From sequence record NC_047820.1: DNA of 50,800 nt. One strand, given 5' to 3'. The notes beneath the pieces were generated by a model. It searched no databases. It was given only the letters and a program-made list of their open reading frames with translations, and was not told where the DNA came from. A program made the position numbers and the translations under genes. This document shows, piece after piece, positions 1,674 through 50,780 of the stretch. The first letter of the stretch is position 1. Each line of letters starts with the position of its first letter. This stretch comes from Escherichia phage vB_EcoS_ESCO41.

Positions 1674-1888
1674 TGCTTATAAAATGCGTGTATGTAAGGC
1701 AAGCAAATCAACAAAACCTTTCAGTTGTAAATGGCGGGATATACGTAGCTAAGCCAATACCTTGTTTTAATGGCTCATACTACATCAAGGTTGATGGCAG
1801 TGAGTACATAGTAAAGACGATAGGTGAAGCCCTTATGATAAAGAGTCTGGGTATCATAATGGCTAAATTCGAAATTGTTCGCAAATAG
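1673..1888 (+). CDS. hypothetical protein (71 aa)
   Basis: TAATG overlap with upstream gene; stop TAG lies inside cassette palindrome. Confidence 0.45.
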   Translation: MLIKCVYVRQANQQNLSVVNGGIYVAKPIPCFNGSYYIKVDGSEYIVKTIGEALMIKSLGIIMAKFEIVRK

Positions 1889-1928
1889 CACGAATTGCTA
1901 AACCAGTACCGCAAGGACGCGGTATAGT
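1886..1928 (+). promoter_or_regulatory. palindrome-promoter cassette: TAGCACGAATTGCTA + 22 bp + TATAGT
   Basis: Palindrome 1886-1900 overlaps stop codon; -10-like 1923-1928; leader CATCGAAACGAAACGAG 1934-1950. Confidence 0.6.
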
Positions 1929-1966
1929 TACTCCATCGAAACGAAACGAGTAATTGAGGATTTGAA

Positions 1967-2185
1967 ATGAGCAAGACAATCACGCTTGAGTGCCTTAAGA
2001 CAAACAACCCTGAGTTCCTTAAAGGTCACAAATATGTAGCAACGCTCGTTGATGGTAAGACCTGGGCCGTTAAGGGTGGGTTTAGTGATTACAAGTTCCC
2101 ACTTGATCACATACCTGGTGGAAACCTTGGTTTTGTTAGTGACTGTCGCTCAGTTAAGTTCGTGTTTGAAGTGGTAATGAAATAG
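1967..2185 (+). CDS. hypothetical protein (72 aa)
   Basis: ORF after cassette and leader; stop TAG inside next palindrome. Confidence 0.5.
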   Translation: MSKTITLECLKTNNPEFLKGHKYVATLVDGKTWAVKGGFSDYKFPLDHIPGGNLGFVSDCRSVKFVFEVVMK

Positions 2186-2225
2186 CACTTTTTGCTAAAC
2201 CTTCCGCAAGGCCATTTGATATAGT
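2183..2225 (+). promoter_or_regulatory. palindrome-promoter cassette: TAGCACTTTTTGCTA + 22 bp + TATAGT
   Basis: Palindrome 2183-2197 overlaps stop; -10-like 2220-2225 preceded by TGA. Confidence 0.6.
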
Positions 2226-2267
2226 GGCCTTGTTGAAGCAAAACAACCAATCACAGAGGATTTACAA

Positions 2268-2630
2268 ATGAAAGTTCGTTTACTTAACCCGTCAATCTAT
2301 GCAGGCATTAGCTACACCAAGCTCCACGAAAAGGAGACGAACCCGCGAGATCCTGGTTCATATCCGATCGTCGTAGAGGGTTTCTTTGATGGCACTGAAT
2401 TTAATAATACTTCAATCAAGGTTGGTGGTGACGAGCTTGATCGAGTATTCAAAAGCTATTTCAGTAGCGGAAAGCCAATGAACTCATGTTACGGTAGCGA
2501 AGCAGTTCTTGGTTGGTGGAACGATCCAGGCGAGCCTAAATCATGGGAACCTGTCGGGCCGTTCGATTACTGGAATAAGCTCAAGGCATCACGCGAAATT
2601 GGCGAGACGGTAGGGAAGGGTTACTTATGA
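2268..2630 (+). CDS. hypothetical protein (120 aa)
   Basis: ORF with RBS-like AGAGGA upstream. Confidence 0.55.
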   Translation: MKVRLLNPSIYAGISYTKLHEKETNPRDPGSYPIVVEGFFDGTEFNNTSIKVGGDELDRVFKSYFSSGKPMNSCYGSEAVLGWWNDPGEPKSWEPVGPFDYWNKLKASREIGETVGKGYL

Positions 2631-2806
2631 TTACTTTATGCATTCTGCTTTACATCCTGGGCGCAATTCCGGTTTATGCAATTGCAAAAGACGTTAGCAA
2701 TAGCGATAACAAATGGTACGACATGGTGATCGTTGCCGCTATCTGGCCCATTGCCATTGCTTTCGGGGTGGTTAATGGCATCTACCAAAAGTTGAAGGAG
2801 AAATAA
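2627..2806 (+). CDS. small hydrophobic protein (59 aa, below ORF-track cutoff)
   Basis: ATGA overlap with upstream stop; translation MITLCILLYILGAIPVYAIAK.. is membrane-like. Confidence 0.4.
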   Translation: MITLCILLYILGAIPVYAIAKDVSNSDNKWYDMVIVAAIWPIAIAFGVVNGIYQKLKEK

Positions 2807-2808
2807 TC

Positions 2809-3027
2809 ATGCAAGTCTACACTAACAGTAAAGGCATTGAGTTTTGTGCGGTAGGCGATGTTGTCCTGCGCACTGGTAGCGATGTCGGGGTTGTTAAAAT
2901 CTCACGCATCACACAGGATCAGTTGGTAAAGGGCATCCAGGCTGGAATCTTTACCTATCACTCATCGTTGACGGCTGATGATTACATCACACTTGATTCT
3001 GCGGTTCGCGTTGGGTTCATCGAATAG
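2809..3027 (+). CDS. hypothetical protein (72 aa)
   Basis: RBS GAAGGAG before ATG; stop TAG inside palindrome. Confidence 0.5.
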   Translation: MQVYTNSKGIEFCAVGDVVLRTGSDVGVVKISRITQDQLVKGIQAGIFTYHSSLTADDYITLDSAVRVGFIE

Positions 3028-3067
3028 CACTTTTTGTTAAAACTTGCTCGGAGACATTAGCTATAGT
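3025..3067 (+). promoter_or_regulatory. palindrome-promoter cassette: TAGCACTTTTTGTTA + 22 bp + TATAGT
   Basis: Palindrome 3025-3039 (G-T variant half-site), -10-like 3062-3067. Confidence 0.55.
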
Positions 3068-3108
3068 GCCTCCTGTCAAGTGAACACAAACCAACTGAGG
3101 AATCACAT

Positions 3109-3915
3109 ATGAACAGCATTAACCGTTATATCCCTGTGTCAGTGCCAACCAGCGTCAACATTCACGGTGTCGGAATGCAGGCCTGCGACGATGGGGTGTG
3201 GGTATCCTACGCGATGCATAAGCAAGAAATTGAGTCCTTACAGACACGTTTAAAGGCCTTAGAATCGACTCAAAAACATCAAATTTCTGCACCGTCGATT
3301 ATCGCTGACCATGTTGAGCAGGCAATCAAAGAAGCTGTAGGTAAGCTGGTGCACGAAGCATGTGAGCAATTGCTCAAGGATTTGCCTAAGTACAATGGCG
3401 ATCCGTGTCACAGCACTGTCGATGCGTTCGTGAATGATCTTGCGGCTGGCCCAGGTAAGACCATCATGGATGACACCTACAGCGTCGCAGGTGAATTGAC
3501 GAAGAACGCCAAGTTCACTTTCGGTAGCAATTTCGGTGAAGGCAAGGCGCTTACCATGTCAACCGCGAAAATGGAACCACGAAGCGGCGGTTACGGTTAT
3601 AGCAATCGTCACGCATGGGCGGTGGGTGAATGTGAATCAGCACGCGATCGCAAGGTGGCGGTTTGCTACCATGTTGGAGGCAATGAGTTTATCAATGGTT
3701 GCGAGTACGCGTATGAAATTGATGAATGCGAACCAGGATGTGAGCCGCGACTTATTCAAATCACGCAAGATGCCTTCTGCTCTGGATTAAAAGGTGATTA
3801 CCGTTGGGAAGCCAGGAGAATTGGTAATGTTATGAATGCCAAGGCAACGCTCGTTGACGCATACGCAATCATAAATCCTGATGGTGGCGTAGTGGCTCAG
3901 TTCTATATCAAATAG
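3109..3915 (+). CDS. hypothetical protein (268 aa), Cys-rich C-terminal half
   Basis: Long ORF; no recognised catalytic motif. Confidence 0.55.
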   Translation: MNSINRYIPVSVPTSVNIHGVGMQACDDGVWVSYAMHKQEIESLQTRLKALESTQKHQISAPSIIADHVEQAIKEAVGKLVHEACEQLLKDLPKYNGDPCHSTVDAFVNDLAAGPGKTIMDDTYSVAGELTKNAKFTFGSNFGEGKALTMSTAKMEPRSGGYGYSNRHAWAVGECESARDRKVAVCYHVGGNEFINGCEYAYEIDECEPGCEPRLIQITQDAFCSGLKGDYRWEARRIGNVMNAKATLVDAYAIINPDGGVVAQFYIK

Positions 3916-3955
3916 CACTTTTTGTTAAAAGGGGATTCATCCTGAGTGGTATAAT
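3913..3955 (+). promoter_or_regulatory. palindrome-promoter cassette: TAGCACTTTTTGTTA + 22 bp + TGGTATAAT
   Basis: Palindrome 3913-3927 overlaps stop; -10 TATAAT 3950-3955 with TG at -15/-14, inside hairpin GGGGATT..AATCCCC. Confidence 0.6.
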
Positions 3956-3988
3956 CCCCACATCAATCACACGAAAGGAAGTTAACAA

Positions 3989-4606: not shown

Positions 4607-4655
4607 AACTAAACTTAACGGTCGAACATCTCGACCACTACTCAGGAATGTCAAA

Positions 4656-5273: not shown

Positions 5274-5274
5274 A

Positions 5275-5317
5275 TAGCACGAATTGCTAAACCCGCTCCG
5301 GCGGGTTTTGTTATAGT
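5275..5317 (+). promoter_or_regulatory. palindrome-promoter cassette: TAGCACGAATTGCTA + 22 bp + TATAGT
   Basis: Palindrome 5275-5289 just after stop TAA; -10-like 5312-5317 preceded by TGT. Confidence 0.6.
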
Positions 5318-5346
5318 TAGTTCACACCAAACGACAGGAAAGCAAA

Positions 5347-5505: not shown

Positions 5506-5507
5506 CC

Positions 5508-5906
5508 ATGAAATTACGTTGCATCAAGATTAACGCTAATTGGGAGTCGATGATCAAAGATTACTTTCAGGTCGGTAAAGTGTATGAGGCAAAGTACGGT
5601 CGCAACATCTACATTGGCACGGTAGATGTTATTGATGATCGCGAAGGGCTTACCTGGTGCGCTATACAGAAAGGGAGCAAGTTCAACCTGAATCTTCCCA
5701 CTGGCCCAGCCGTCACTTTCGAACTTGTAACAGGTCCGCGCCGCCTGGTGGTAACTGAGAAGCGCGTAACTAACGTGTTAAACGACAAGCGTAAATTCCG
5801 CCGCATGTGCAGACAGTACGGTAAGCTTCGATTTACTGAGCCTGGGATGTTCTGCTTTATCGCCTTCGCGGCAATGAAAAAGAATGCACGCAATCACCAG
5901 CGATAG
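5508..5906 (+). CDS. hypothetical protein (132 aa), basic C-terminus
   Basis: ORF with RBS; stop TAG inside palindrome. Confidence 0.5.
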   Translation: MKLRCIKINANWESMIKDYFQVGKVYEAKYGRNIYIGTVDVIDDREGLTWCAIQKGSKFNLNLPTGPAVTFELVTGPRRLVVTEKRVTNVLNDKRKFRRMCRQYGKLRFTEPGMFCFIAFAAMKKNARNHQR

Positions 5907-5946
5907 CACTTTTTGTTAAAACTCATAATCGGGGTGACTGTATAGT
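5904..5946 (+). promoter_or_regulatory. palindrome-promoter cassette: TAGCACTTTTTGTTA + 22 bp + TATAGT
   Basis: Palindrome 5904-5918; -10-like 5941-5946; leader CATCGAAACGAACGAGG 5952-5968. Confidence 0.6.
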
Positions 5947-5976
5947 TACCCCATCGAAACGAACGAGGAAGCAGAA

Positions 5977-7288: not shown

Positions 7289-7366
7289 GCTCCGCTAGCT
7301 CAATTGGAAAGAAGCAACGACCTTCTAAGTCGTAGGTTACTGGTTCGAACCCAGTGCGGAGCGCCA
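7289..7366 (+). tRNA. tRNA-Arg (anticodon UCU)
   Basis: Acceptor GCTCCGC/GCGGAGC, anticodon stem ACGAC/GTCGT with loop CTTCTAA, T-arm ACTGG-TTCGAAC-CCAGT, encoded CCA; D-arm irregular. Confidence 0.75.
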
Positions 7367-7888: not shown

Positions 7889-7896
7889 TTCATTTA

Positions 7897-7921
7897 AGCA
7901 TCCTTTGGGGTGCTTTTTTTA
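7897..7921 (+). terminator. rho-independent terminator
   Basis: 7-bp stem AGCATCC/GGGGTGCT with G-U pair, then T7 run. Confidence 0.6.
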
Positions 7922-7932
7922 TGCCTGCAATC

Positions 7933-7941
7933 TGGTATAAT
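7933..7941 (+). promoter_or_regulatory. extended -10 element TGGTATAAT upstream of terminase genes
   Basis: Direct reading; no clear -35. Confidence 0.3.
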
Positions 7942-8516: not shown

Positions 8517-10136
8517 ATGTGCACAATGGCAAGTAAAGACATTTTAATATGGGAAAATCTAACCGAGAAAGAGAAGTCGGTAGTGAAGGTGATGAGCGAA
8601 AGGTCTTTTAGTGATTTTATGCGCATATGGTTCGCTTTGATACAGGCTCAGAAGTTTAGGTCTAATTGGCACTTCAACTACCTTTGCTGGAAGGTTGAGC
8701 AGATAATCAACGGTGAGATACAAAACATCATATTCAACATTACCCCAGGCTCTGGCAAGACTGAGATCTTCTCCATTCACATGCCAGTGTATTGCATGTT
8801 CAGGAGCGAGAAGATAAGGAATCTTAACCTCTCATTCTCTGATAGTCTCGTTAAGGATAACGGGATCAGGACGCGTGAGATTATCGGGTCTGATGAGTTC
8901 CAGGAGCTTTGGCCCTGCAAACTAGCAAAGGCTTCAGGTGGTGACATTACCGCTCTAAACTCAAAGGAAAAGGCATGGTTAACTCTAACTTCACGTGCGA
9001 TCGGTGGTCAGGTAACTGGTAAGCGTGGCGGTTATATGGATGATGGCTTCACCGGAATGCTGACGCTTGATGACCCTGAGAAGCCGAAAGACCTATACTC
9101 AGCAGTAAAGAGAAAGGCTGGTCACACGCTGTTAAAGAACACCGTTCGATCGCGAAGAATGAATGACAAGACACCATGCGTTGTTGTTCAGCAGCGACTA
9201 CACGTAAACGACGCGACTTGGTTCCTGATGAATGGCGGTATGGGTGGGATGCAGTTTGAGCAGGTAATCATTCCGGCCCTGGTCACTGAGGAATACAGAG
9301 ACGCACTTCCTGACTGGTTGAAAGAAGAGTTTGACCGCGACGTTTTATCTTCTGAACCTGTCGAGATTGATGGTGTTAAGCATTATTCATTCTGGCCTGC
9401 AAAAGAAAGCGCAGAGAGCTTGCTTGCATTGCGGGAGGCCGACCTTTACACCTTTGAGTCTCAGTATCAGCAAAAGCCGATCGCGCTTGGTGGCAACGCG
9501 TTCAAGTCGGAATGGTTCCAGTATTACGGCGACGGCGAAAAAGCCAACATGCCAAAACCGGATCGCTTCGAATACCTCTTTACCACTGCGGACACCGCGC
9601 AGAAGGCTGAGGAAATTCACGACTACAGCGTATTTGTTCTGTGGGGTAAGTATAAGGATCGCGTGTATTTCATCGACGGCATTCGCGGTAAGTGGGAAGC
9701 GCCGGACCTTGAAACGATGGCTCTTAACTTTTACGGCAACTGCTTTAAGTGGGCGAAGGAGAACAAGACGTCATTACGCAAGGTTTACATTGAAGACAAG
9801 GCGAGCGGTACGGGCCTGATCCAGTCAATTAACAAGAAGCTCCCGATTGACATCACGCCAGTGCAGCGAGATACCGACAAGGTTACGCGTGCAATGGACG
9901 CAGCACCAATCATGAAAGCAGGGCGAATCGTTTTTCCTGAATCTCACCCAATGCTTACTGAAATGGAAGCGGAACTGGTAGGCTTCACCTTTGATGATAG
10001 CCATCCTCACGATGATATCGTGGATAACGTGGTTGATGCTGGTAACTTCGAGATGAACTTGCTTGATGATCCGGTGGCACGAATGAAAAAACTCGCAGGA
10101 CTCAGGAAAAGCACTAAAAGTCAAAACACGCCTTAG
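8517..10136 (+). CDS. terminase large subunit (likelier start ATG 8526)
   Basis: 539 aa, P-loop-like NITPGSGKTE, directly upstream of portal; GGAG 8512-8515 fits the 8526 start. Confidence 0.75.
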   Translation: MCTMASKDILIWENLTEKEKSVVKVMSERSFSDFMRIWFALIQAQKFRSNWHFNYLCWKVEQIINGEIQNIIFNITPGSGKTEIFSIHMPVYCMFRSEKIRNLNLSFSDSLVKDNGIRTREIIGSDEFQELWPCKLAKASGGDITALNSKEKAWLTLTSRAIGGQVTGKRGGYMDDGFTGMLTLDDPEKPKDLYSAVKRKAGHTLLKNTVRSRRMNDKTPCVVVQQRLHVNDATWFLMNGGMGGMQFEQVIIPALVTEEYRDALPDWLKEEFDRDVLSSEPVEIDGVKHYSFWPAKESAESLLALREADLYTFESQYQQKPIALGGNAFKSEWFQYYGDGEKANMPKPDRFEYLFTTADTAQKAEEIHDYSVFVLWGKYKDRVYFIDGIRGKWEAPDLETMALNFYGNCFKWAKENKTSLRKVYIEDKASGTGLIQSINKKLPIDITPVQRDTDKVTRAMDAAPIMKAGRIVFPESHPMLTEMEAELVGFTFDDSHPHDDIVDNVVDAGNFEMNLLDDPVARMKKLAGLRKSTKSQNTP

Positions 10137-10186
10137 CGTGCTTTGTATAATTTAGTGTAGATAAATAAAGTTAATGAGGTGTTAAG

Positions 10187-10735
10187 GTGAGATTCAGCGA
10201 TATTTTTACATACAAAAGCGGAGAGGTTTTCTGGAATGGAAGGCCAGAAAGTGATTTTAGTAAAATGAGTGCATATCACGCGTTTAATAGGATGGTTGGC
10301 AATACTGCTGGATACCTAGATAAATCAAACGGATACTGGTATGTGTGGATTACAATTGGCGGTATTGAAAAGAAAATACCACGATCACATATTGTGTGGT
10401 GTATTCACAATAATGCAGCCATCGTTCCAAAAGGGTTTGTTATTGATCATATAAACCACGTAAGAGATGATGATAGGATAGAAAACCTTGAACTTAAAAG
10501 CTATAGAGGAAACAACAGAAACCTTTCAATATCAAAAAGGAATAAAAGCGGTTGCGTAGGTGTTACATGGTATTCTCGCGATGAAATGTGGATGGCTTGC
10601 ATAATGGGTGATGACGGAAAGAACAAAAATCTTGGCAGGTATAATGACTGGTTTGATGCGGTTTGCGCAAGGAAGAGCGCGGAGCATGAGATTGGGTATC
10701 ACACAAACCACGGCAAGGATAGCGAGAATTGCTAA
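10187..10735 (+). CDS. HNH homing endonuclease (GTG start)
   Basis: IDHINHVRDDDRIENLEL matches the HNH/AP2-type motif; paralogous to 12823 and 40179 genes. Confidence 0.75.
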   Translation: MRFSDIFTYKSGEVFWNGRPESDFSKMSAYHAFNRMVGNTAGYLDKSNGYWYVWITIGGIEKKIPRSHIVWCIHNNAAIVPKGFVIDHINHVRDDDRIENLELKSYRGNNRNLSISKRNKSGCVGVTWYSRDEMWMACIMGDDGKNKNLGRYNDWFDAVCARKSAEHEIGYHTNHGKDSENC

Positions 10736-10748
10736 ACTCATGTATAAT

Positions 10749-15074: not shown

Positions 15075-15102
15075 TTGACCGTTTAACAAAAAATGCTATT
15101 AT
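15075..15102 (+). promoter_or_regulatory. sigma70-type promoter TTGACC-N16-TATTAT for the major capsid gene
   Basis: -35 15075-15080, -10 15097-15102. Confidence 0.55.
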
Positions 15103-25445: not shown

Positions 25446-25469
25446 GACCCGCCTTGCGCGGGTTTTTTT
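25446..25469 (+). terminator. hairpin plus T-run
   Basis: CCCGC-cttgc-GCGGG followed by T7. Confidence 0.5.
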
Positions 25470-25474
25470 ACGCC

Positions 25475-25482
25475 TGTATAAT
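25475..25482 (+). promoter_or_regulatory. extended -10 element TGTATAAT upstream of the J-like gene
   Basis: Direct reading, 36 nt before ATG 25518. Confidence 0.35.
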
Positions 25483-25517
25483 GAAACATCTATAAATCGC
25501 ACTAAAGGCTAAACATC

Positions 25518-30128: not shown

Positions 30129-30168
30129 TTCTAATTCCTCATTAAGTGCGTTTCGTTTCGATGGAGTA

Positions 30169-30211
30169 ATAGTATCGCATCCTTGCGATCAGTGTTTAGC
30201 AATTAGTGCTA
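30169..30211 (-). promoter_or_regulatory. palindrome-promoter cassette (minus): TAGCACTAATTGCTA + 22 bp + TACTAT
   Basis: Palindrome (plus 30197-30211) overlaps the Rha-like stop; leader CCATCGAAACGAAACG at plus 30149-30164. Confidence 0.6.
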
Positions 30212-30856
30212 TTTCTTTTCCAGCAGCAGCTTGATATCAATGCCGAGATTATTCTCAATCAGTCCGGTCAGCGCATCAGTCTTTTCCTTAAGGGCGAAGC
30301 ATTGAGCTTCATATTTAAATCTTTCCTCCATCTCATCAGAACGACCGACCCAACACTGGCGAGCCTCACAAGCCAACATGTCGAGCTTTTCATCGGTATT
30401 CTTATCCATCAGCAGGATCTCATTTATTCTTTGCTCCGCAACAATGCGCTGGCTCAGGTGTGCATTTTGCGCATTAGCTACACCAAGCATCATGCGCGCC
30501 TCTTTTAGTTCATCAATACTTACCATCTGGCTGATTACCTCAGCTTGCTTTTTAACTAACACCTCAAGCTCATGAAGCCTACGGATAACTTTGTGGCGAA
30601 GCAAGACGCTGTAGCCAGTGATTAGCGTTTCGGTGAGCTCCTTGTCTAGAAGAATCTCAGAATTATAACCTCGACCATCTTTAAGTATCTGATATTGCTT
30701 ATCATCCAAAACTGGATGATCGTTATATTGTAACAACTCATTGATCATATCCCTTGCATCCCTCATTACGTGGAAGTGCTCCTTTCCAGTTAATCCAGCG
30801 ATTTCCTTTGTGCTCATCATGGTTTTTGGTTGTTCTTTGTACGCTTTAATGTTCAT
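30209..30856 (-). CDS. Rha-family phage regulatory protein (antirepressor-like); start ATG 30856
   Basis: MMSTKEIAGLTGKEHFHVMRDARDMI resembles the Rha N-terminal domain; RBS GAGAGATTAAA before 30856; longer ORF-track N-terminus is probably 5' UTR. Confidence 0.5.
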   Translation of the reverse strand: MNIKAYKEQPKTMMSTKEIAGLTGKEHFHVMRDARDMINELLQYNDHPVLDDKQYQILKDGRGYNSEILLDKELTETLITGYSVLLRHKVIRRLHELEVLVKKQAEVISQMVSIDELKEARMMLGVANAQNAHLSQRIVAEQRINEILLMDKNTDEKLDMLACEARQCWVGRSDEMEERFKYEAQCFALKEKTDALTGLIENNLGIDIKLLLEKK

Positions 30857-30926
30857 TTTAATCTCTCTATATGTTTTGACTGCGAAAATTTCGTATTCAA
30901 ACGGCACCATCGCCGCCATGCGCCTA

Positions 30927-30969
30927 AATATACCCAGATATAGCCAGTTGTCTTTAGCAATTCGTGCCA
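30927..30969 (-). promoter_or_regulatory. palindrome-promoter cassette (minus): TGGCACGAATTGCTA + 22 bp + TATATT
   Basis: Plus 30955-30969 palindrome with one half-site mismatch; -10 at plus 30927-30932. Confidence 0.5.
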
Positions 30970-31035
30970 TTTATCGCCAATTCCACCATAAATCACGGTT
31001 ACACGTAACCGATGTAACTCGATGTATACAATCTC

Positions 31036-31427: not shown

Positions 31428-32468
31428 ATGACCAAACCACTGTTTCAATATTTCACTTCAGAAGAAATGAGCAACGACTTTTATCACAGTAAAGATGAAT
31501 GGACTGCCGAGTATGTCTCTGGTTCATCGTTAAGCAAGATTCACAGCACATGCCCTGCGGCGTGGAAGTTCGAAATGAACTCTACGACTAAGGCTCTTGT
31601 TTTCGGCACGCAGTCACACACAAACTTTGAGAGTAAGGCTCTTTTTGAACGTCAATATCGCCGCGCACCGAAAGAAAGCGAGATTGAAAACGTGATAACA
31701 AGCCAGGCGGCATTGGCAGCTAAGTTAAAATCATTTGGCCTGACTGGTACAAGCGGAAAGCAATATCCAGAGTTGATTAAAATGATGGTTGATTGCGGCG
31801 AAGACCTTAACGTCATGTGGCTGATTGACATGATCGCACAATGTCAGGCGTGGGCCGACGGAGTGGAACTGGTTAAGGCTGAGGACTACGACGCCTGCGT
31901 CAGTATGCGCCAGGTTCTTGAGATGATTCCTGAACATAACGCCTGCATGAACAGTGAGACTGCATTCCGTGAGTATTCATTGTTTGGCGTGATTTGTGGC
32001 GTTAAAGTTAAGGTGCGACTTGACCATGTTGACATCGTTAAGGATCTAGAGGCAATACGGCGCATGGGCTACGATCCTGAGATTCACCCTGAAATTGTCG
32101 TCATCACTGATTACAAAACGACAATGAGCGCTAACCCGACCGAGTTCCCTCGCCTGGCGTTCAATCATGGCTACTACCTCAAGATGGCATTGCAGCGTGA
32201 CTTGTTCGTTAAATGCTTTGAAGAAACGCGACCTGTGGTTGTGCGCTTGCTGGCCCAGGAGAAGAAAGAACCTTACTTGCCTATGGCGTACCGGATGAGC
32301 GGCGATCAGCTTAAGATTGGGCGTGCTCAGTATATGAGCGTTATTCATACTTTCTCAATGTGCGAAGCGAATGACGTATGGCCTTCATACAGCAACGGCG
32401 AGCCAGAGATTGAGCTTGAGACTCCTGATTGGATTAAAAAGCAGTTCAATCACATTTTGGAATCGTAG
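31428..32468 (+). CDS. PD-(D/E)xK-family recombination exonuclease-like protein; start ATG 31428
   Basis: Motif IVVITDYKTT with acidic residues upstream; directly upstream of Erf-like and SSB genes; ORF-track start 31374 lies inside the promoter. Confidence 0.5.
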   Translation: MTKPLFQYFTSEEMSNDFYHSKDEWTAEYVSGSSLSKIHSTCPAAWKFEMNSTTKALVFGTQSHTNFESKALFERQYRRAPKESEIENVITSQAALAAKLKSFGLTGTSGKQYPELIKMMVDCGEDLNVMWLIDMIAQCQAWADGVELVKAEDYDACVSMRQVLEMIPEHNACMNSETAFREYSLFGVICGVKVKVRLDHVDIVKDLEAIRRMGYDPEIHPEIVVITDYKTTMSANPTEFPRLAFNHGYYLKMALQRDLFVKCFEETRPVVVRLLAQEKKEPYLPMAYRMSGDQLKIGRAQYMSVIHTFSMCEANDVWPSYSNGEPEIELETPDWIKKQFNHILES

Positions 32469-32507
32469 CACTTTTTGCTAAACACGAATGCGGTGATTTG
32501 CTATAAT
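32466..32507 (+). promoter_or_regulatory. palindrome-promoter cassette: TAGCACTTTTTGCTA + 21 bp + TGCTATAAT
   Basis: Palindrome 32466-32480 overlaps stop; extended -10 32499-32507 within hairpin CGGTGA..TCACCG. Confidence 0.6.
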
Positions 32508-32544
32508 CACCGTAAATCAAACGAAGTAAACAAAGGTATATATA

Positions 32545-36123: not shown

Positions 36124-36148
36124 AATAATCAACTCCTATATTGTTGTT

Positions 36149-36163
36149 TAGCACGAATTGCTA
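36149..36163. promoter_or_regulatory. isolated TAGCACGAATTGCTA palindrome 26 bp upstream of the tail-fibre start, with no -10 at the usual distance
   Basis: Direct reading. Confidence 0.4.
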
Positions 36164-36189
36164 AAGCGCATTGTATCATAACAAAGGAA

Positions 36190-36212
36190 TAAAAAAACCC
36201 GCCGTAGCGGGT
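36190..36212 (-). terminator. rho-independent terminator (minus strand) after the primase-like gene
   Basis: ACCCGC-tacg-GCGGGT followed by T7 on the minus strand. Confidence 0.65.
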
Positions 36213-36217
36213 AATTG

Positions 36218-37174: not shown

Positions 37175-37204
37175 AAAAAAGGTTGCACCAATTATGGCAC
37201 AACC
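37175..37204 (-). terminator. hairpin plus T-run (minus strand) that also carries the -10 of a degenerate cassette
   Basis: GGTTGCACC..GGCACAACC hairpin with plus-strand A6 (minus T6) tract. Confidence 0.45.
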
Positions 37205-37233
37205 TTAATTTTACTCTTTAGCTTTTCGTGCCA
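37191..37233 (-). promoter_or_regulatory. degenerate palindrome-promoter cassette (minus): TGGCACGAAAAGCTA + 22 bp + CATAAT
   Basis: Same spacing as canonical cassettes; -10 lies in the hairpin loop. Confidence 0.4.
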
Positions 37234-37234
37234 T

Positions 37235-37423: not shown

Positions 37424-37465
37424 TTTGTATATCCTCGTTTGGTTTGCCTGCTTTCGATGTGGTCA

Positions 37466-37508
37466 ATCATACCTCATCAATGAGAAATGTCTTTAGCTTT
37501 TCGTGCCG
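37466..37508 (-). promoter_or_regulatory. degenerate palindrome-promoter cassette embedded in the 3' end of the HTH gene: CGGCACGAAAAGCTA + 22 bp + TATGAT
   Basis: Plus 37494-37508 palindrome-like, -10 at plus 37466-37471, then leader and gene 37235..37423. Confidence 0.45.
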
Positions 37509-37959
37509 CATCGTTAGCGGCCTTAATCTTGCGCCATGAACGACACTCTGGCTTAGTGGCTAGTTCAGCCTCGGTGACGACGCGCAGCATGTGACGCTTT
37601 TTGCAACGCAGCGTTAGCGGCTTACCGTTCCCGTCGAATTGCAGATCCGGTCGGCAGAACGTAGCGCGGAATCCCTCTCCAGTTCGTTTGTATCGGTTAT
37701 GAGCCAGCTGAGCGCCACGGGCCGACATCATGCCGCGCTTAAACCATTCCTCAACGGCCTGGCGACTAACTTTCAGTTGCTTTGCGATATTTGCCTTCGT
37801 TCCGTAGAAGTCGAGAACCATTTCCAGTCGCGCCCGAAGCCCCGCCTTTACTTCATCTTTTAAAACGTAGTAACCTGAAGGTCGTTTTCGTTGCTTTTTG
37901 TCTTCAGTGCGGACTGTTCCGTTGTTACCGTTAATAGTTCGCTTGTCAACTGCTTTCAT
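37477..37959 (-). CDS. basic DNA-binding protein with helix-turn-helix (candidate transcription regulator)
   Basis: HTH-like TKANIAKQLKVSRQAVEEWFKRG; Lys/Arg-rich; divergent from the helicase gene with a palindrome in between. Confidence 0.5.
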   Translation of the reverse strand: MKAVDKRTINGNNGTVRTEDKKQRKRPSGYYVLKDEVKAGLRARLEMVLDFYGTKANIAKQLKVSRQAVEEWFKRGMMSARGAQLAHNRYKRTGEGFRATFCRPDLQFDGNGKPLTLRCKKRHMLRVVTEAELATKPECRSWRKIKAANDAARKAKDISH

Positions 37960-37972
37960 TTTATCACCTCAA

Positions 37973-38015
37973 TAGCATTTTTTGTTAAAAGTCATTACGA
38001 TTTGATGGTAGTATT
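37973..38015 (+). promoter_or_regulatory. palindrome-promoter cassette: TAGCATTTTTTGTTA + 21-22 bp + TAGTAT
   Basis: Palindrome 37973-37987 sits 14 bp upstream of the divergent HTH gene start and upstream of the helicase gene. Confidence 0.5.
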
Positions 38016-38060
38016 GTACCAAATTAAACGCTACAAGACAATTTTTATAGGAATTTAGAT

Positions 38061-39369: not shown

Positions 39370-40182
39370 TTGAGAAAGATTGGTAGCTTAACTCTCATGA
39401 TTCAGCTTCTTGGGCGAGGCATGCGAATTCTAAAGAAAAAGCATATAGAAATGGGGATGAAAAAAGATGATCACCTTGTTCTAGACTTCGCCGGCGCACT
39501 TGACGATATGGCCGAACTTTACTTTGACCCAATCATTGAAGAAATTCAGGCTGAGAAGTTCAAGTCCTCAAGGAAAGGTGGTGATGAGGTCCGGCAGTGC
39601 CCGCAGTGTGGATATGAGAACTCACCATTTGCTCGACGCTGTAGCAACAAGATTGATGGAAAGCGCTGTGAGCACTTTTTCAGCTTTACGGTTTGTGAAG
39701 ATATTACTGACCCACAAACAAAGTCCGTCATCAAGAAAGGTTGCGGTACTCGCAACGACATAGCAGCAAAGGTTTGTCGTGAATGCGGAGAAATGCTTAA
39801 AGACCCTAATGCTAATCTAACCGGTAAGATGTATCGTCGTGGTGATTACCTCCGAGTTTATGATTTTCAAGTTGGTTTAAGTAAGAACCAGACTGGAATA
39901 GTTGTTAAATACAACATCATGGCGCATAACGGAGAGCGGTTTAATGCTTGGGAGTTCTTTAATCCAGAATCAGACCATCGAGTTTGCAGCGTGCTTTGGA
40001 AAAATTTCTGCCTATCCCATATTGAGAATCGCACAGAAGCAGCACGAATTGCTAAACTTCGCAGCGCAAAAATGATTATGATGAACGTAGATAAATTCCG
40101 TGCTCCTGTGCAGGTAACTCACAGAAAGAATGGCAAAGGAAAGGACATAATAGCTTTTAAGAATTTTGGAGAATTATTATGA
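39370..40182 (+). CDS. SF2 helicase, C-terminal part (motif VI plus Cys-rich zinc-finger-like region); possibly a pseudogene fragment
   Basis: QLLGRGMR helicase motif VI; CPQCG..RRCSNK..CEHF and CGTRND..CRECG; frame continuous with upstream ORF if one repeat copy is removed. Confidence 0.55.
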   Translation: MRKIGSLTLMIQLLGRGMRILKKKHIEMGMKKDDHLVLDFAGALDDMAELYFDPIIEEIQAEKFKSSRKGGDEVRQCPQCGYENSPFARRCSNKIDGKRCEHFFSFTVCEDITDPQTKSVIKKGCGTRNDIAAKVCRECGEMLKDPNANLTGKMYRRGDYLRVYDFQVGLSKNQTGIVVKYNIMAHNGERFNAWEFFNPESDHRVCSVLWKNFCLSHIENRTEAARIAKLRSAKMIMMNVDKFRAPVQVTHRKNGKGKDIIAFKNFGELL

Positions 40183-40655: not shown

Positions 40656-41071
40656 ATATTACAGATAAGGTTGATTACATTGAGTTTTACCCGGGCCCTG
40701 TTAAATCATGCCCAAAGGAGGATGACGAACAAATATTTTGCTCTGATTGGGTTAAGTATAACTATCCAGAGATGGTATTTTTCCACTGCGTGAATGAGGG
40801 TAAGAAAACCATTGGACAAGCAAGAAAGGACCAGGCTAAAGGATTGCTTAAGGGGGTTTCGGACTGCTTATTCCTGATGCCTGAATCGCTGCGTGGCAAA
40901 TACCCTTTCGGTGCCATAGAGCTAAAGAGAGCAGGAAAAACCCAAGCAAGCCCAGTCAGTGACGAACAGAAGTCATTCCTTAAAAGCGTAAGGGAATCAG
41001 GAGGTTTTGCTGGGGTTGCCTACGGGCGTGAAGGTTTTCTTGCGGCATTTAAAGAGATGATTTCAAAATAG
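40652..41071 (+). CDS. VRR-NUC-like nuclease domain protein (putative)
   Basis: PD-(D/E)xK-like pattern around ..FLMPE..GAIELKRAGK..; low-certainty motif reading. Confidence 0.4.
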   Translation: MNITDKVDYIEFYPGPVKSCPKEDDEQIFCSDWVKYNYPEMVFFHCVNEGKKTIGQARKDQAKGLLKGVSDCLFLMPESLRGKYPFGAIELKRAGKTQASPVSDEQKSFLKSVRESGGFAGVAYGREGFLAAFKEMISK

Positions 41072-41111
41072 CACGAATTGATAAAGACTAATCGGTGAGG
41101 TGGTGTATTAT
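41069..41111 (+). promoter_or_regulatory. palindrome-promoter cassette: TAGCACGAATTGATA + 22 bp + TATTAT
   Basis: Palindrome 41069-41083 overlaps stop; -10-like 41106-41111 in loop of GAGGTG..CACCTC hairpin; leader CATCGAAACGAAG. Confidence 0.55.
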
Positions 41112-41150
41112 CACCTCATCGAAACGAAGTAACCAACCAAGGAAATCAAA

Positions 41151-41423: not shown

Positions 41424-41424
41424 G

Positions 41425-42153: not shown

Positions 42154-42385
42154 GATGGAAAAGTTGCAATTTGATTTAACTGAGCAGGGGCAATTCCTTT
42201 TATTTCGCGGCCTTGTTTGCACGGCTCTTACAATGGCTGGGTTCAAGGGTGATGCTTGGGTATTCTCAAATCTTGACATGTCATTTGAAGAGGTCCAAGG
42301 CACTCCATTTGAATCATGGTCAAGATCAATAGCAAAAGATCTCGCAGACTATAAGCGCGATTGCCCTGAAGATTTTAACCAATAG
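42146..42385 (+). CDS. hypothetical protein (79 aa)
   Basis: Overlaps methylase stop; own stop inside palindrome. Confidence 0.45.
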   Translation: MFKMEKLQFDLTEQGQFLLFRGLVCTALTMAGFKGDAWVFSNLDMSFEEVQGTPFESWSRSIAKDLADYKRDCPEDFNQ

Positions 42386-42425
42386 CACGAATTGCTAAAC
42401 ATACCCGCCGCCGTGCGGGTATACT
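42383..42425 (+). promoter_or_regulatory. palindrome-promoter cassette: TAGCACGAATTGCTA + 22 bp + TATACT
   Basis: Palindrome 42383-42397; -10-like 42420-42425; leader CACACCAAAGAAACGAGG. Confidence 0.55.
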
Positions 42426-42455
42426 TCTTTCACACCAAAGAAACGAGGAATCACC

Positions 42456-44381: not shown

Positions 44382-44382
44382 G

Positions 44383-44426
44383 TAGCACTTTTTGCATAAC
44401 ACTATAGCGCCGAAAGGCGCTATATT
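44383..44426 (+). promoter_or_regulatory. palindrome-promoter cassette (variant half-site): TAGCACTTTTTGCAT + 23 bp + TATATT
   Basis: Starts 2 nt after stop TAA; hairpin AGCGCC-gaaa-GGCGCT in spacer. Confidence 0.5.
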
Positions 44427-44453
44427 CATATCTCACCCACAGAGGATTCAATC

Positions 44454-45838: not shown

Positions 45839-45840
45839 AA

Positions 45841-46376: not shown

Positions 46377-46379
46377 TGT

Positions 46380-47963: not shown

Positions 47964-47995
47964 CTTATTCTCTCTCGTTGTTATCGATGGGTATA

Positions 47996-48039
47996 AATAT
48001 ACCCGCCGAAGCGGGTATTGTCATTAACAAAAAGTGCTA
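47996..48039 (-). promoter_or_regulatory. palindrome-promoter cassette (minus): TAGCACTTTTTGTTA + 22-23 bp + TATATT
   Basis: Plus 48025-48039 palindrome overlaps upstream stop; hairpin ACCCGC-ttcg-GCGGGT; leader CATCGATAACAACGAGAG. Confidence 0.55.
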
Positions 48040-48246
48040 TTTTTTGAAGTGCCCTGGCGCATAGCATTTTCCATCCTTCTTATGCAAAACCCACCCAGCA
48101 GATTTAAGTTGCCTTGCACAATCAGAAAAGTTCTCGCCAGCAGCGTCCGTATAGTGTGGCATAAAATAATGCCCATCATCATTTGACTCAGTTGAGCACT
48201 TCTTGCAGTCGCAATAAACAGCGATGGAATAACCTGAAATAATCAT
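48037..48246 (-). CDS. hypothetical Cys-containing protein (69 aa)
   Basis: ATGA overlap with upstream gene. Confidence 0.45.
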   Translation of the reverse strand: MIISGYSIAVYCDCKKCSTESNDDGHYFMPHYTDAAGENFSDCARQLKSAGWVLHKKDGKCYAPGHFKK

Positions 48247-48596: not shown

Positions 48597-48634
48597 GATT
48601 ATTTTCCTTTGGTGTGTTTCGTTTCGATGAGATG

Positions 48635-48677
48635 AATATACAGGAAAAGCCCCGAAGGGCTTTAGCAATTAGTGCTA
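48635..48677 (-). promoter_or_regulatory. palindrome-promoter cassette (minus): TAGCACTAATTGCTA + 22 bp + TATATT
   Basis: Plus 48663-48677 palindrome overlaps stop of methyltransferase-like gene; hairpin AGCCC-ttcg-GGGCT. Confidence 0.6.
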
Positions 48678-49343
48678 TTTGTTACTTTCATATAGTGCGC
48701 GAGCAAACCCCTCAGGTGTTAATGATCGGAGTACTTTTGTCTTTGCAGACTTTCCGCCGCAGTATTTCCAGGCCCAGAAGAACCCAATGCTCTCGACTGG
48801 CTTTTTAATCGGTTCAACAAATCCATTCCCACACCAAATACATGTCTTTTTATTATAGGCGTTACGAGGGGGCATCCTGGGGTGATAAACTTCATCATGT
48901 TCAACGTAACCGCCATAATCGCAAGGGTGAAAATAGAAGTCAGGCTTACGCCACAGGCTTGAAAGCTTGCCTACCGGATTCTCGACCATCCAGGGTGCCT
49001 GGAAGTGATTTCCGACTTCCTCGACGAGCTTCGCATTAGCCAAGGCATACGCCAGTTCATCCTCACTGCGCTCATGCTGTGATCCAGACTGAGAGAACAG
49101 CGTGCAATCAGGGAATCCGATAACCATCTGCGCCGGAGGCAGGCCGAGTAATTCACACTTGGTGATGAAATCCTTGTCAATCCACATATTGACGTAGTGG
49201 ATGTTCTCATGCTTCATCTTGATATGGTATTCGCCATGATTACCAGAGTCCGCGTTGAAACAGTAGACGGTGTGACCATCTTCCGCCCATGGCAGGCCAG
49301 CGATGCCGGATCCGTCAAAAAGACAATAAATTACCTTTTTCAT
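48675..49343 (-). CDS. compact C5-cytosine methyltransferase-like protein (putative)
   Basis: Motif I-like LFDGSGIAG, motif IV-like GFPDCTLFSQSG (Pro-Cys), motif VI-like ENPVG; only 222 aa, no obvious target-recognition region. Confidence 0.4.
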   Translation of the reverse strand: MKKVIYCLFDGSGIAGLPWAEDGHTVYCFNADSGNHGEYHIKMKHENIHYVNMWIDKDFITKCELLGLPPAQMVIGFPDCTLFSQSGSQHERSEDELAYALANAKLVEEVGNHFQAPWMVENPVGKLSSLWRKPDFYFHPCDYGGYVEHDEVYHPRMPPRNAYNKKTCIWCGNGFVEPIKKPVESIGFFWAWKYCGGKSAKTKVLRSLTPEGFARALYESNK

Positions 49344-49498
49344 TTCTTCTTTTCCTTCTCAATTGCTTTCTGTGTGATTTCGTAACTGCTTTGCAAGTCT
49401 TCAACCTGAGCGCTGGTGCTCCATGGATACCATCCTTGACCTGAGAGCTTCGCGATCGTGTCGTTGTCGTAGTAGTTCAAATCGGATGGCTTGAGCAT
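49340..49498 (-). CDS. small hypothetical protein (52 aa, below ORF-track cutoff)
   Basis: RBS GAGGTGAAATA before ATG; TAATG overlap upstream and ATGA overlap downstream. Confidence 0.3.
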   Translation of the reverse strand: MLKPSDLNYYDNDTIAKLSGQGWYPWSTSAQVEDLQSSYEITQKAIEKEKKK

Positions 49499-49737
49499 TA
49501 TTTCACCTCATCAAACGTTGCGATGCCAGGGATGAACATTCCGACCTTCCATCCTGCGATAGCAATCCAGCCAGAATCGTGCTTGTGCGGTCGCTCAGCG
49601 CCATTAATTACCCACTCGTTCGGGATTGTCTTACCTTTAATGATTAGCGGCTCAGCGTCGTATACAGAGCCTTTTACGAACGGTGTCAAAACTTTCTTGT
49701 CGGTGCTGGTGATGCAATTTGTGCATATTACTTTCAT
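49498..49737 (-). CDS. hypothetical protein (79 aa)
   Basis: ORF with RBS, in coupled gene chain. Confidence 0.45.
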   Translation of the reverse strand: MKVICTNCITSTDKKVLTPFVKGSVYDAEPLIIKGKTIPNEWVINGAERPHKHDSGWIAIAGWKVGMFIPGIATFDEVK

Positions 49738-49746
49738 GTTATCGCC

Positions 49747-49962
49747 TTAGAACGGTATTCCGTCGTCAAATTTTAAGCGGTAGTCGAAATCATCACCGAT
49801 TCCGTCGACTGACTGGTTGCTCTCGCTTTCCAGATCCATATCCATAATGCCGAGAGCGTCATCAAGTTCTATACATCCATAAGCTACCTTGAGCGCCCAC
49901 TCTTCATTAAGTCCGGCTTCAAGTGCCGCGCGGTGGCGGCTCCAGAAATTATCTTGATGCAC
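49747..49962 (-). CDS. small acidic protein ending in SSB-like tail ..FDDGIPF (GTG start)
   Basis: 71 aa, highly acidic; C-terminal DDGIPF mirrors the SSB tail DDIPF of 33240..33683. Confidence 0.4.
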   Translation of the reverse strand: MHQDNFWSRHRAALEAGLNEEWALKVAYGCIELDDALGIMDMDLESESNQSVDGIGDDFDYRLKFDDGIPF

Positions 49963-49964
49963 TG

Positions 49965-50189
49965 TTAGCTCCAGGAATTGATGTAAAGTGAATTGTCGTT
50001 TAACAGGTTGACCATCTCAGCACGGGTAAGGCTACGGATGATTGAGCCTGGATGAGTGCCAACAACGTAGCGGTCGAACTCACGGCGCGTAATGGTTATT
50101 TGGCTTACGCCTGCGGCGCGGTCCAGCTTGACGATTGCACGGCCTTTTGCTTCGATGTGTGCTACTACGTTCTGAGCTTTAACTGACAT
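49965..50189 (-). CDS. hypothetical protein (74 aa)
   Basis: Strong RBS AAGAGGAAG after cassette and leader. Confidence 0.5.
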   Translation of the reverse strand: MSVKAQNVVAHIEAKGRAIVKLDRAAGVSQITITRREFDRYVVGTHPGSIIRSLTRAEMVNLLNDNSLYINSWS

Positions 50190-50227
50190 TTTTACTTCCT
50201 CTTTGTGTACTTCGTTTCGATGAAATT

Positions 50228-50270
50228 ATTATGCCTCAATCCGTGAGGCTTCGTTTAGCAATTCGTGCTA
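50228..50270 (-). promoter_or_regulatory. palindrome-promoter cassette (minus): TAGCACGAATTGCTA + 22 bp + CATAAT
   Basis: Plus 50256-50270 palindrome immediately after upstream stop TAA; leader TTCATCGAAACGAAG. Confidence 0.6.
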
Positions 50271-50271
50271 T

Positions 50272-50703
50272 TTAACGATTTTTTGGTGGTCGTTTATAGT
50301 GAGAATAAAACGGCGTTGGCGGAAAGCATGGCTGATAACCAGTCAGGTTCTGACGTGCCGCTTTACCGAGCGCAACAGCCGCATTTTGCTGAACTCTGGC
50401 AATCTCACCATTGCGGAACAACCGCTCTTTACTGAACCGTCGCCCCATGAACTCAACGGCAAGGTAGTCAATAGGATCTAGCGCCACGCGTTTTTCCATG
50501 AATACCTTTCGGCTTGATGCCAGGAATACTTTGCTGCCTTTCTTGCCGACTGCTGAGCGAATAAGTCTATAGGTTGAATCGACGAACTGGTAATAGAAGC
50601 GCCATGCTCCATAGGACCACACATACATCCGGCCTGACGGAGTAATGAATCTGGTCTTGCCGTCAGCAATGCCCTTATAGATAACTCCGTAAACAATGCT
50701 CAT
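50272..50703 (-). CDS. hypothetical protein (143 aa)
   Basis: ORF with RBS AAGGAGAAATAA. Confidence 0.5.
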   Translation of the reverse strand: MSIVYGVIYKGIADGKTRFITPSGRMYVWSYGAWRFYYQFVDSTYRLIRSAVGKKGSKVFLASSRKVFMEKRVALDPIDYLAVEFMGRRFSKERLFRNGEIARVQQNAAVALGKAARQNLTGYQPCFPPTPFYSHYKRPPKNR

Positions 50704-50736
50704 TTATTTCTCCTTATCTCTCGTTTCTATGAGGTA

Positions 50737-50780
50737 ATAATAGCGAATCCACCATGACTGGTCATTAGCAAAAAGTGCTA
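50737..50780 (-). promoter_or_regulatory. palindrome-promoter cassette (minus): TAGCACTTTTTGCTA + 23 bp + TATTAT
   Basis: Plus 50766-50780 palindrome; leader CATAGAAACGAGAG. Confidence 0.5.

Follow-up and report, generated by a model that had tools for sequence, protein, structure and literature searches.

In Escherichia coli, MarA, SoxS, and Rob recognize the marbox, for which the published consensus is AYNGCACNNWNNRYYAAAYN and the form derived from chromatin immunoprecipitation sequencing (ChIP-seq) is GCAHWWWWTGYYAAA. Sites of the AraC family are described as non-palindromic. In class II marbox promoters, a forward-oriented box overlaps the -35 region. Genome-wide data from Salmonella place class II sites near -41, at promoters with canonical -10 elements and start sites and with no recognizable -35, and they indicate that Rob and SoxS complexes displace sigma from the -35 region; the RamA site at micF lies at about -41. 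Here, we analyzed the DNA of Escherichia phage vB_EcoS_ESCO41 (NC_047820.1; 50,800 nucleotides, the whole stretch being called the window), which represents the complete or near-complete 50.8-kb genome of a T1-like siphovirus of the Drexlerviridae. An earlier note on this DNA had described about 19 copies of a palindrome-anchored promoter cassette, TAGCA-N5-TGCTA followed by a -10-like hexamer, and had found no match to a host operator. The 20-bp element that contains this repeat, termed the box, does fit both marbox consensuses. The cassettes look like class II marbox promoters, in which a forward box centered near -41 replaces the -35 element and is followed by the -10 hexamer at a distance of 18 bp.

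The repeat itself is not a new observation, because the 2024 re-annotation of phage TLS already lists a 21-nt direct repeat, aaATAGCACnnnTTGnTAAAA, in 21 copies (PMC11447400). The TLS copies are co-directional with the genes, precede start codons by ~76 nt, fall into A, T, and G sub-types, and were also reported in T1, Rtp, and Rogue1 (PMC11447400). No function was assigned to them; stoperators, enhancer sites, and UP elements were put forward as guesses, and only three credible sigma-70 promoters were recognized in TLS (PMC11447400). Judged by consensus, copy number, sub-types (GAA, TTT, and AAA/TAA), direction, and the ~76 nt to the start codons, the box is the same element as the TLS repeat. 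The TLS copies DR7 and DR8 correspond to the window boxes at the major capsid gene and at gene J, which encodes the central tail fiber. The TLS study treats the 21-mer in isolation, without a fixed -10, a start site, a hairpin, a leader, or a marbox match.

Exact TAGCA-N5-TGCTA occurs 10 times in the window, compared to 0.09 expected from shuffled sequences. When TG[CT]TA and one mismatch were allowed, 43 strand-matches were obtained (6.3 expected), and an oriented search with up to two mismatches gave 23 sites. The final tally comprises 21 promoter-type cassettes, compared to the ~19 claimed before, and four boxes in other positions (Table 1). The cassette runs from the stop codon of the upstream gene through the 20-bp box, ATAGCAC(GAA/TTT/TAA)TTG(C/T)TAAAnC, and a gap of 17–19 bp (mostly 18) to an extended -10 hexamer of the TGnTATAGT type. 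Six nucleotides further, that is, 7 nt past the hexamer, lies the predicted start A, followed by a leader resembling ATCGAAACGAA, a Shine–Dalgarno sequence, and the start codon at box positions 73–90. A TAnnnT hexamer stands exactly 18 bp 3′ of the box (22 bp past the palindrome) at 12 of 20 window sites (binomial p = 6e-18, with a TAnnnT background frequency of 0.014 per position) and 17–19 bp 3′ of it at 16 of 20 (p = 3e-19). The proposed spacing of 21–23 bp between palindrome and hexamer is confirmed.

Several other elements of the earlier description were borne out as well. The left half-site was said to hold the stop codon of the preceding gene, and indeed its TAG coincides with box positions 2–4 in 13 cassettes, with a TAA ending just before the box in two more. 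No standard -35 is present at 17 bp, the respective positions being occupied by AAAACn, and the cassette looks like a non-standard sigma-70 promoter. The upstream site, previously placed near -41/-42, has a predicted center at -40.5, and the cassette is found throughout the genome in front of early, replication, and accessory genes. With respect to the -10 and the gene that follows, all 21 cassettes are oriented like micF. The assertion that the repeat always points along local transcription holds for nearly all copies; the exceptions are the box at 15080–15099, which is reversed, and the one at 36145–36164, which is nearly palindromic.

Two further properties of the cassette were observed. 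The central triplet (box positions 8–10) is not random but bimodal, with GAA or TTT and, less often, TAA/AAA. It differs even between orthologous cassettes: the window cassette at 2182 carries TTT and that of T1 at 3535 GAA, with the same hairpin. At box positions 45–50 (-6 to -1), the discriminator is C-rich, often TACCCC, and the predicted transcripts begin with A. The combination of a C-rich discriminator and an A start resembles growth-rate- or guanosine tetraphosphate (ppGpp)-sensitive promoters, and it is partly forced by a hairpin arm.

For the window, 379 related phage records were returned, the nearest being Escherichia virus TH30 of the genus Nouzillyvirus (~87% identity, with 89% of the first 25 kb covered). 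The search of related T1-like genomes suggested by the earlier note was successful: the cassette was found in T1, TH30, a Klebsiella phage of the genus Webervirus, and one member each of Hanrivervirus and Jhansiroadvirus, and the box also in TLS and Rtp. Scanning viral contigs for ATAGCACNNNTTGYTAAA yielded at least 120 stretches, and multiple copies were confined to ~50-kb T1-like contigs, including TLS and Rtp. Out of 253 unique T1-like cassettes, 147 had the hexamer at 18 bp, 9 at 17 bp, and 20 at 19 bp, with no further peak. Beyond the positions used for selection, the logo of the 147 cassettes shows an A before the box (0.83), conserved A19/C20, and a G at -14 (0.78) that is preceded by T (0.44), corresponding to the TGn of an extended -10. 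The hexamer reads T A T(0.8) A(0.63) R T, and it is followed by pyrimidines, an A (0.84) seven bases past the hexamer, and an A-rich, T-poor leader. With this conserved A as the predicted +1, the hexamer occupies -12 to -7 and the box -50 to -31. Records MG065680 ("Campylobacter phage A113") and NC_054898 ("Vibrio phage Vc1") are typical Drexlerviridae with enteric-type box cassettes, and their stated Campylobacter and Vibrio hosts are, therefore, doubtful. Host range was unusable as a discriminator, since the hosts are all enteric or doubtful and the box is kept in all genera.

The agreement with the marbox goes far beyond that of shuffled sequences. Against 0.03 expected, consensus AYNGCACNNWNNRYYAAAYN is matched perfectly 7 times in the window, and allowing one mismatch raises the number to 16 (1.1 expected); for GCAHWWWWTGYYAAA, the corresponding numbers are 9 (0.13 expected) and 20 (1.8 expected). 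According to our own arithmetic, a random 15-mer fits the ChIP-seq consensus with a chance of ~2e-7. In the right half of the box, only position 14 (C/T) varies, and it coincides with a Y of the consensus; the apparent palindrome GCA...TGC is part of the marbox consensus.

The conservation of the box is clearly asymmetric. In 76 degenerate copies with a correctly spaced hexamer, G4, C5, A6, G13, A16, and A17 are almost never altered, whereas changes at T2, C7, T12, T15, and A18 are frequent. The two members of a mirror pair are not equally affected, with 16 mismatches at T2 versus 2 at A16, and 2 at A6 versus 15 at T12. C7/T11 are not mirror images, and neither are the flanks, A0/A1 upstream versus AAAAC downstream. 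At 37234 and 37509, the palindrome is gone, but GCAC and TAAA are retained. Because the box is asymmetric, the palindrome reading was only half right, and the CRP-like symmetric dimer site of the earlier note, or any CRP/Cro-like symmetric operator, was rejected on account of the unequal conservation of the half-sites. The class II promoters of CRP, with a site centered at -41.5 and no -35, resemble the cassettes in both respects; they differ by their symmetric TGTGA-N6-TCACA dimer site, the phage box having another sequence and asymmetric conservation. The box was also compared with the OxyR, AraC I1, and MotA sites. AraC I1 was rejected, as it has only the left half (ATAGCATTTTT) in common with the box.

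The geometry of the cassettes is likewise that of host promoters. At the annotated start of micF in E. coli K-12, the box ACAGCACTGAATGTCAAAAC is separated by exactly 18 bp from TAGAAT, and transcription starts 8 nt past the hexamer. The best forward boxes of nfo, inaA, and sodA lie exactly 18 bp before TATCAT, TATAGT, and TATAAT, respectively, and that of fumC 17–18 bp before an A/T-rich hexamer. All five promoters were reportedly assigned to class II by Martin and coworkers in 1999. A published list of MarA targets includes micF, fumC, inaA, and sodA. With the host class II promoters (micF, nfo, inaA, sodA, fumC, lpxC P2, lpxL P1, and rfaY P1), the cassettes share a 20-bp asymmetric forward site of marbox type centered near -41, the lack of a recognizable -35, and a canonical -10 at 18 bp. 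They differ in number, with ~20 copies per 50 kb, in being much nearer to the consensus than all host sites compared, and in the invariant T11, T12, A0, and A19/C20, the embedded stop codon, the spacer hairpin, and the conserved leader. No paper linking marboxes to T1-like phages was found in a full-text search covering mainly papers outside subscription journals.

An extended -10 could also operate with no specific factor, the box being a UP-like element for the alpha subunit of RNA polymerase or containing a displaced -35 (TTGCTA). The G at -14 in 78% of the cassettes, the TG in many of them, and the A/T-rich center and 3′ end of the box are consistent with this possibility, as are box-less "terminator + TGnTATAAT" promoters in the same genome, for example, that of terS. 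UP elements are, moreover, among the possibilities listed by the TLS authors (PMC11447400). However, TTGCTA is 22 bp away from the -10, beyond the reach of sigma region 4, and the exact marbox match would have no explanation. A reversed box within a promoter spacer and boxes downstream of start sites make no sense as UP elements. The invariant G4, C5, A6, and G13 are not features of the UP-element consensus, which counts further against a promoter of this type. We regard it as quite improbable.

Among phages, a parallel is provided by the T4 middle promoters. Like the cassettes, they form a phage-wide sigma-70 set with a retained -10 and an activator box in place of the -35. The MotA box (TGCTTtA) of T4 is centered at -30, and its function requires phage MotA together with AsiA-remodeled sigma-70. 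The box of the cassettes has its center at -40.5 and a different sequence, on which grounds a MotA-type middle promoter was rejected. Neither MotA nor AsiA appeared among the Pfam or PHROG names of ~50 proteins scanned, a survey that included no targeted search.

According to the earlier note, the structural operons use ordinary promoters. This view has to be revised, as the promoters of the capsid, J, and tail-fiber genes, whose identities were checked, carry a box overlapping the promoter core. The capsid gene has a good promoter, and the reversed box that fills its spacer is conserved across six genomes, including T1, TH30, A113, and Vc1, and is degenerate in KLPN7. The forward box in the J leader is conserved in T1 (25021), TH30 (5200), and TLS (DR8). 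From their placement, the three boxes are predicted to be repression sites. Late-promoter repression would have a precedent in pbpG, which is repressed by MarA/SoxS through a marbox in the promoter spacer. At J and the tail-fiber gene, where the box lies in the leader, a bound protein could block transcription in a stoperator-like manner. The stoperators of mycobacteriophage L5 and the boxes are indeed alike in that many asymmetric, transcription-oriented copies occupy short intergenic regions. They differ in that L5 stoperators stand at no set distance from a -10 and need a prophage repressor, whereas the present family is virulent and most of its boxes hold a fixed promoter position. The late units at 7896–7941, 25447–25482, and 36215–36170 begin with an intrinsic terminator and, within ~20 bp of it, a strong -10 with TG just 5′ of it and no -35.

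Which protein might bind the box? The candidate named in the earlier note was the helix-turn-helix (HTH) protein encoded at 37477–37959. In this rival reading, a dimer of the regulator, or another phage protein, would bind TAGCA-N5-TGCTA and activate a delayed-early regulon. The protein, a member of the T1 gp56 family, is encoded in all Drexlerviridae genomes examined and is the only annotated regulator, and its gene has a sigma-70-like promoter independent of the box. Moreover, the box has a 5+5 inverted repeat as its core and is more constrained than the host consensus. The protein contains, however, a single Cro-like HTH (no hit was obtained against solved structures), and its recognition helix differs between genera (RQAVEEW, QQTVNQW, IQVVQQW, NQTVQGW, and VRLTNAY), whereas the box does not. 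Degenerate boxes drop the palindrome and keep the marbox elements, and a phage factor would leave both the 15/15 marbox match and the micF-identical 18-bp spacing without a reason. A factor that accumulates would also keep the capsid, J, and tail-fiber promoters blocked late, just when they are needed. Early activation combined with a late block would be coherent only if the factor is present first and limiting later, which suits a host factor better than an accumulating phage protein. Taken together, we consider a phage-encoded factor unlikely.

The MarA/SoxS/Rob profile gave nothing better than E = 0.4 against the six-frame translation of the window (the MarA query was checked against PDB 1BL0), and Pfam revealed no AraC-type domain in 40 window proteins. 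As an AraC-type phage protein was not found and the HTH recognition helix varies while the box stays constant, we favor host proteins as the factor with moderate confidence. From the phage-wide regulon driven by one palindrome-binding factor, as envisaged in the earlier note, the genome-wide promoter set remains; the palindrome binder gives way to a putative marbox activator. That account had also lacked the box asymmetry, the spacer hairpin, the conserved leader, and the boxes at late promoters.

We assign a probability of about 60% to the reading that host MarA, SoxS, and Rob activate the early genes via class II marbox promoters and repress the late genes. The cassette would then be an activator-dependent class II sigma-70 promoter whose box, at about -50 to -31, replaces the -35. 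The box would be a near-consensus marbox for host activators that are monomeric and contain two HTHs, namely MarA, SoxS, and Rob, as well as RamA in Klebsiella and Salmonella. Upon entry, the phage DNA would recruit whichever of these proteins is available, and ~20 early, replication, and accessory promoters would fire. The same protein, bound to the boxes in the capsid spacer and in the J and tail-fiber leaders, would hold the late promoters down. Once the factor is lost or titrated, the early promoters would fade and the late promoters open. MarA and SoxS are short-lived, and each copy of the replicating phage DNA would contribute ~25 strong sites. With a hairpin in its spacer and a stop codon in its box, each unit would form a compact module of the type "end of gene, terminator or stem-loop, next promoter."

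A number of points weigh against this mechanism. The searchable literature holds no binding, start-site, or host-mutant data for T1-like phages. Unstressed cells contain little MarA and SoxS, and without an inducer most of the Rob is held in inactive aggregates; T1-like phages nevertheless thrive on ordinary laboratory cultures. Factor-independent activity could stem from the extended -10; in one study, the class II promoters of lpxC, lpxL, and rfaY showed MarA-independent activity. The phage box is tighter than the host consensus (T11, T12, A0/A1, and A19/C20), which could reflect a dedicated factor instead of selection for the highest affinity. Sequence searches might miss a phage DNA-binding protein that has diverged strongly. 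Finally, the hairpin around the -10 (class B, see below) is left unexplained by the marbox model.

The region at box positions 19–54 folds with -10.2 kcal/mol, compared to -4.7 kcal/mol for shuffled sequences (p = 1e-26); examples are found at 2202–2235, 3931–3960, and 5922–5952. Two classes of hairpins were distinguished among 163 cassettes. In class A (40/163), the hairpin is placed between box and -10; UUCG or GNRA loops are frequent, the tails are T-rich (T fraction 0.53), and the whole resembles a terminator with the -10 region as its U-tract. In class B (93/163), the arms at -24 to -18 and -7 to -1 enclose the -10 in a fixed register that ends at the predicted +1, and there is no U-tract (T fraction 0.22). 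The class B arms pair at 45% of positions versus 34% with permuted partners and 24–33% in shifted registers, with several pair types per column. The fold is more stable by 1.95 kcal/mol, and richer in G-U pairs, for sense than for antisense RNA. Fixed-register covariation was not usable for class A, which has no common register, so that only the comparison of fold and shuffles applies there. Rfam assigned no known RNA family to the hairpin or the leader in the window, where it finds only a tRNA.

The strong fold, the covarying stems, and, in class A, the loops and T-rich tails would also suit a module acting at the RNA or DNA level, that is, a terminator or stem-loop, a stoperator-like roadblock, or a recombination linker that shuffles gene modules like the promoter-early stem-loop (PeSL) cassettes of T4-type phages, with the promoter being secondary. 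Homology breakpoints between the window and TH30 point in the same direction, as they occur within 80 bp of 11/22 boxed gene boundaries versus 7/59 box-less ones (Fisher p = 6e-4). This enrichment is confounded, however, because the boxes sit in the more variable early regions. In addition, neither a terminator nor a recombination site needs a fixed distance of 18 bp to the -10, the extended -10 G, or the +1 A, and the class B hairpins lack the U-tract. Such a module is compatible with marbox activation; as the principal role of the repeat, we deem it highly improbable. The repeats may also serve as recombination linkers like the PeSL cassettes of T4. In the latter, a stem-loop is located upstream of an ordinary sigma-70 early promoter, near small variable-region genes. 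PeSL and phage cassettes are alike as repeated units of stem-loop and early promoter at small variable-region genes and mosaic junctions, and PeSL cassettes differ in having no activator box with a hairpin in the spacer.

Regarding the genome as a whole, the small early genes form two arms that diverge from the window ends, the structural genes extend over ~8–29 kb, and the recombination, replication, and lysis genes follow. The left early arm contains a tRNA gene at 7289–7363 (+) (Rfam RF00005, 57.7 bits). Between the divergent arms, there are ordinary sigma-70-like promoters at 546–574 (+; TTGACT-17-CATAAT) and 343–315 (-; GTTACA-17-TATAAT), which are candidates for factor-independent immediate-early promoters. 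A generic sigma-70 scan of the window gave no enrichment over shuffles (35 vs 30.4). The cassette at 30920–30970 (-) precedes a gene for an Ant/KilAC-like protein (phrog_8235), an anti-repressor-like gene that is odd in a virulent phage. Its mRNA may be leaderless, translated from the in-frame ATGs at the predicted start. For each of two HNH endonuclease genes (10108–10735 and 40039–40655, cassettes included), a separate cassette lies within the 3′ end of the gene before it, namely the large terminase gene and open reading frame (ORF) 39370–40182. This arrangement suggests mobile genes that arrived with, or acquired, a phage promoter unit.

Table 1. Box-bearing cassettes, other boxes, and the HTH regulator gene in the window. 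Distances are from the box to the -10 hexamer; start sites are predicted.
Feature	Position	Strand	Box	Distance	-10	Remarks
Cassette	1885..1935	+	ATAGCACGAATTGCTAAACC (1885-1904)		TATAGT (1923-1928)	Class A hairpin; predicted +1 A 1935; would drive ORF 1967-2185; TAG stop of ORF 1673-1888 at box positions 2-4
Cassette	2182..2232	+	ATAGCACTTTTTGCTAAACC	18 bp	TATAGT	Perfect match to both marbox consensuses; class B hairpin AAGGCCA...TGGCCTT around -10
Cassette	3024..3074	+	ATAGCACTTTTTGTTAAAAC	18 bp	TATAGT	
Cassette	3912..3962	+	ATAGCACTTTTTGTTAAAAG	18 bp	TATAAT	Hairpin GGGGATT...AATCCCC
Cassette	5274..5324	+	ATAGCACGAATTGCTAAACC		TATAGT	Terminator-like hairpin CCCGCtccgGCGGG, TTTTGT
Cassette	5903..5953	+	ATAGCACTTTTTGTTAAAAC	18 bp	TATAGT	Leader ATCGAAACGAA
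Weaker cassette	10108..10158	+	AAAGCACTAAAAGTCAAAAC	18 bp	TATAAT	Within 3′ end of large terminase gene; HNH endonuclease gene 10187-10735 downstream
Degenerate box	10719..10738	+	ATAGCGAGAATTGCTAAACT			5′ of ORF starting 10791 (portal, by synteny with T1); without -10 at cassette spacing
Major capsid promoter	15075..15102	+	Reversed, 15080-15099; - strand reads ATAGCATTTTTTGTTAAACG		TATTAT	TTGACC-N16-(TGc)TATTAT; the box forms the spacer
J (central tail fiber) promoter region	25447..25515	+	ATCGCACTAAAGGCTAAACA, forward (25496-25515)		TATAAT (25477-25482)	Terminator 25447-25470; box at ~+8 to +27, ending 2 nt before ATG 25518
Cassette	30162..30212	-	ATAGCACTAATTGCTAAACA	18 bp	TACTAT	Leader ATCGAAACGAA
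Cassette	30920..30970	-	ATGGCACGAATTGCTAAAGA	18 bp	TATATT	In-frame ATGs right at predicted start
Cassette	32465..32514	+	GTAGCACTTTTTGCTAAACA	17 bp	TATAAT	Erf-like recombinase gene 32545-33201 downstream
Tail-fiber promoter region	36145..36215	-	Nearly palindromic (36164-36145)		TGaTACAAT (36178-36170)	Terminator ~36215-36190; box at ~+1 to +20; Shine–Dalgarno sequence and ATG 36122 after it
Cassette	37184..37234	-	ATGGCACGAAAAGCTAAAGA	18 bp	CATAAT	Primase gene; palindrome broken, GCAC and TAAA kept
Cassette	37459..37509	-	GCGGCACGAAAAGCTAAAGA	18 bp	TATGAT	Leader CATCGAAAGCA; within 3′ end of HTH gene; palindrome broken
Single-HTH "transcriptional regulator" gene	37477..37959	-				phrog_2856, weak Cro/YdaS match; own promoter TTGTCT-N17-TACAAT
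Cassette	37972..38021	+	ATAGCATTTTTTGTTAAAAG	17 bp	TAGTAT	Helicase gene from 38061 downstream; overlaps leader of divergent HTH gene
Cassette	40039..40089	+	GCAGCACGAATTGCTAAACT	18 bp	TATGAT	Within upstream gene, 5′ of HNH gene 40179-40655
Cassette	41068..41118	+	ATAGCACGAATTGATAAAGA	18 bp	TATTAT	Leader ATCGAAACGAA
Cassette	42382..42432	+	ATAGCACGAATTGCTAAACA		TATACT	Hairpin ATACCCGC...GCGGGTAT
Degenerate cassette	44382..44433	+	GTAGCACTTTTTGCATAACA	19 bp	TATATT	5′ of ORFs starting 44454
Cassette	47989..48040	-	ATAGCACTTTTTGTTAATGA	19 bp	TATATT	Hairpin ATACCCGCttcgGCGGGTAT (UUCG loop)
Cassette	48628..48678	-	ATAGCACTAATTGCTAAAGC		TATATT	Hairpin AAGCCCttcgGGGCTT; leader ATCGAAACGAA
Cassette	50221..50271	-	ATAGCACGAATTGCTAAACG	18 bp	CATAAT	Leader ATCGAAACGAA
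Cassette	50730..50781	-	ATAGCACTTTTTGCTAATGA	19 bp	TATTAT	

T1 belongs to the founding phages of molecular biology. Should the boxes be marboxes, the missing promoters of these phages would be found, a regulator could be named, and a simple hypothesis for the early/late switch would be available. More tentatively, the temporal program of the Drexlerviridae might run on the regulators of antibiotic and oxidative stress in the host, with the switch brought about by decay or titration of the factor and tuned by inducers of multidrug resistance (salicylate, bile, superoxide, and marR mutations). If the marbox reading is right, phage growth would be tied to the mar/sox/rob regulon behind clinical multidrug resistance, which would have a bearing on phage–antibiotic combinations and on therapy with the Klebsiella and E. 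coli phages of the family. Even if the marbox reading fails, the cassette remains a well-defined class of promoter and improves annotation throughout the family.

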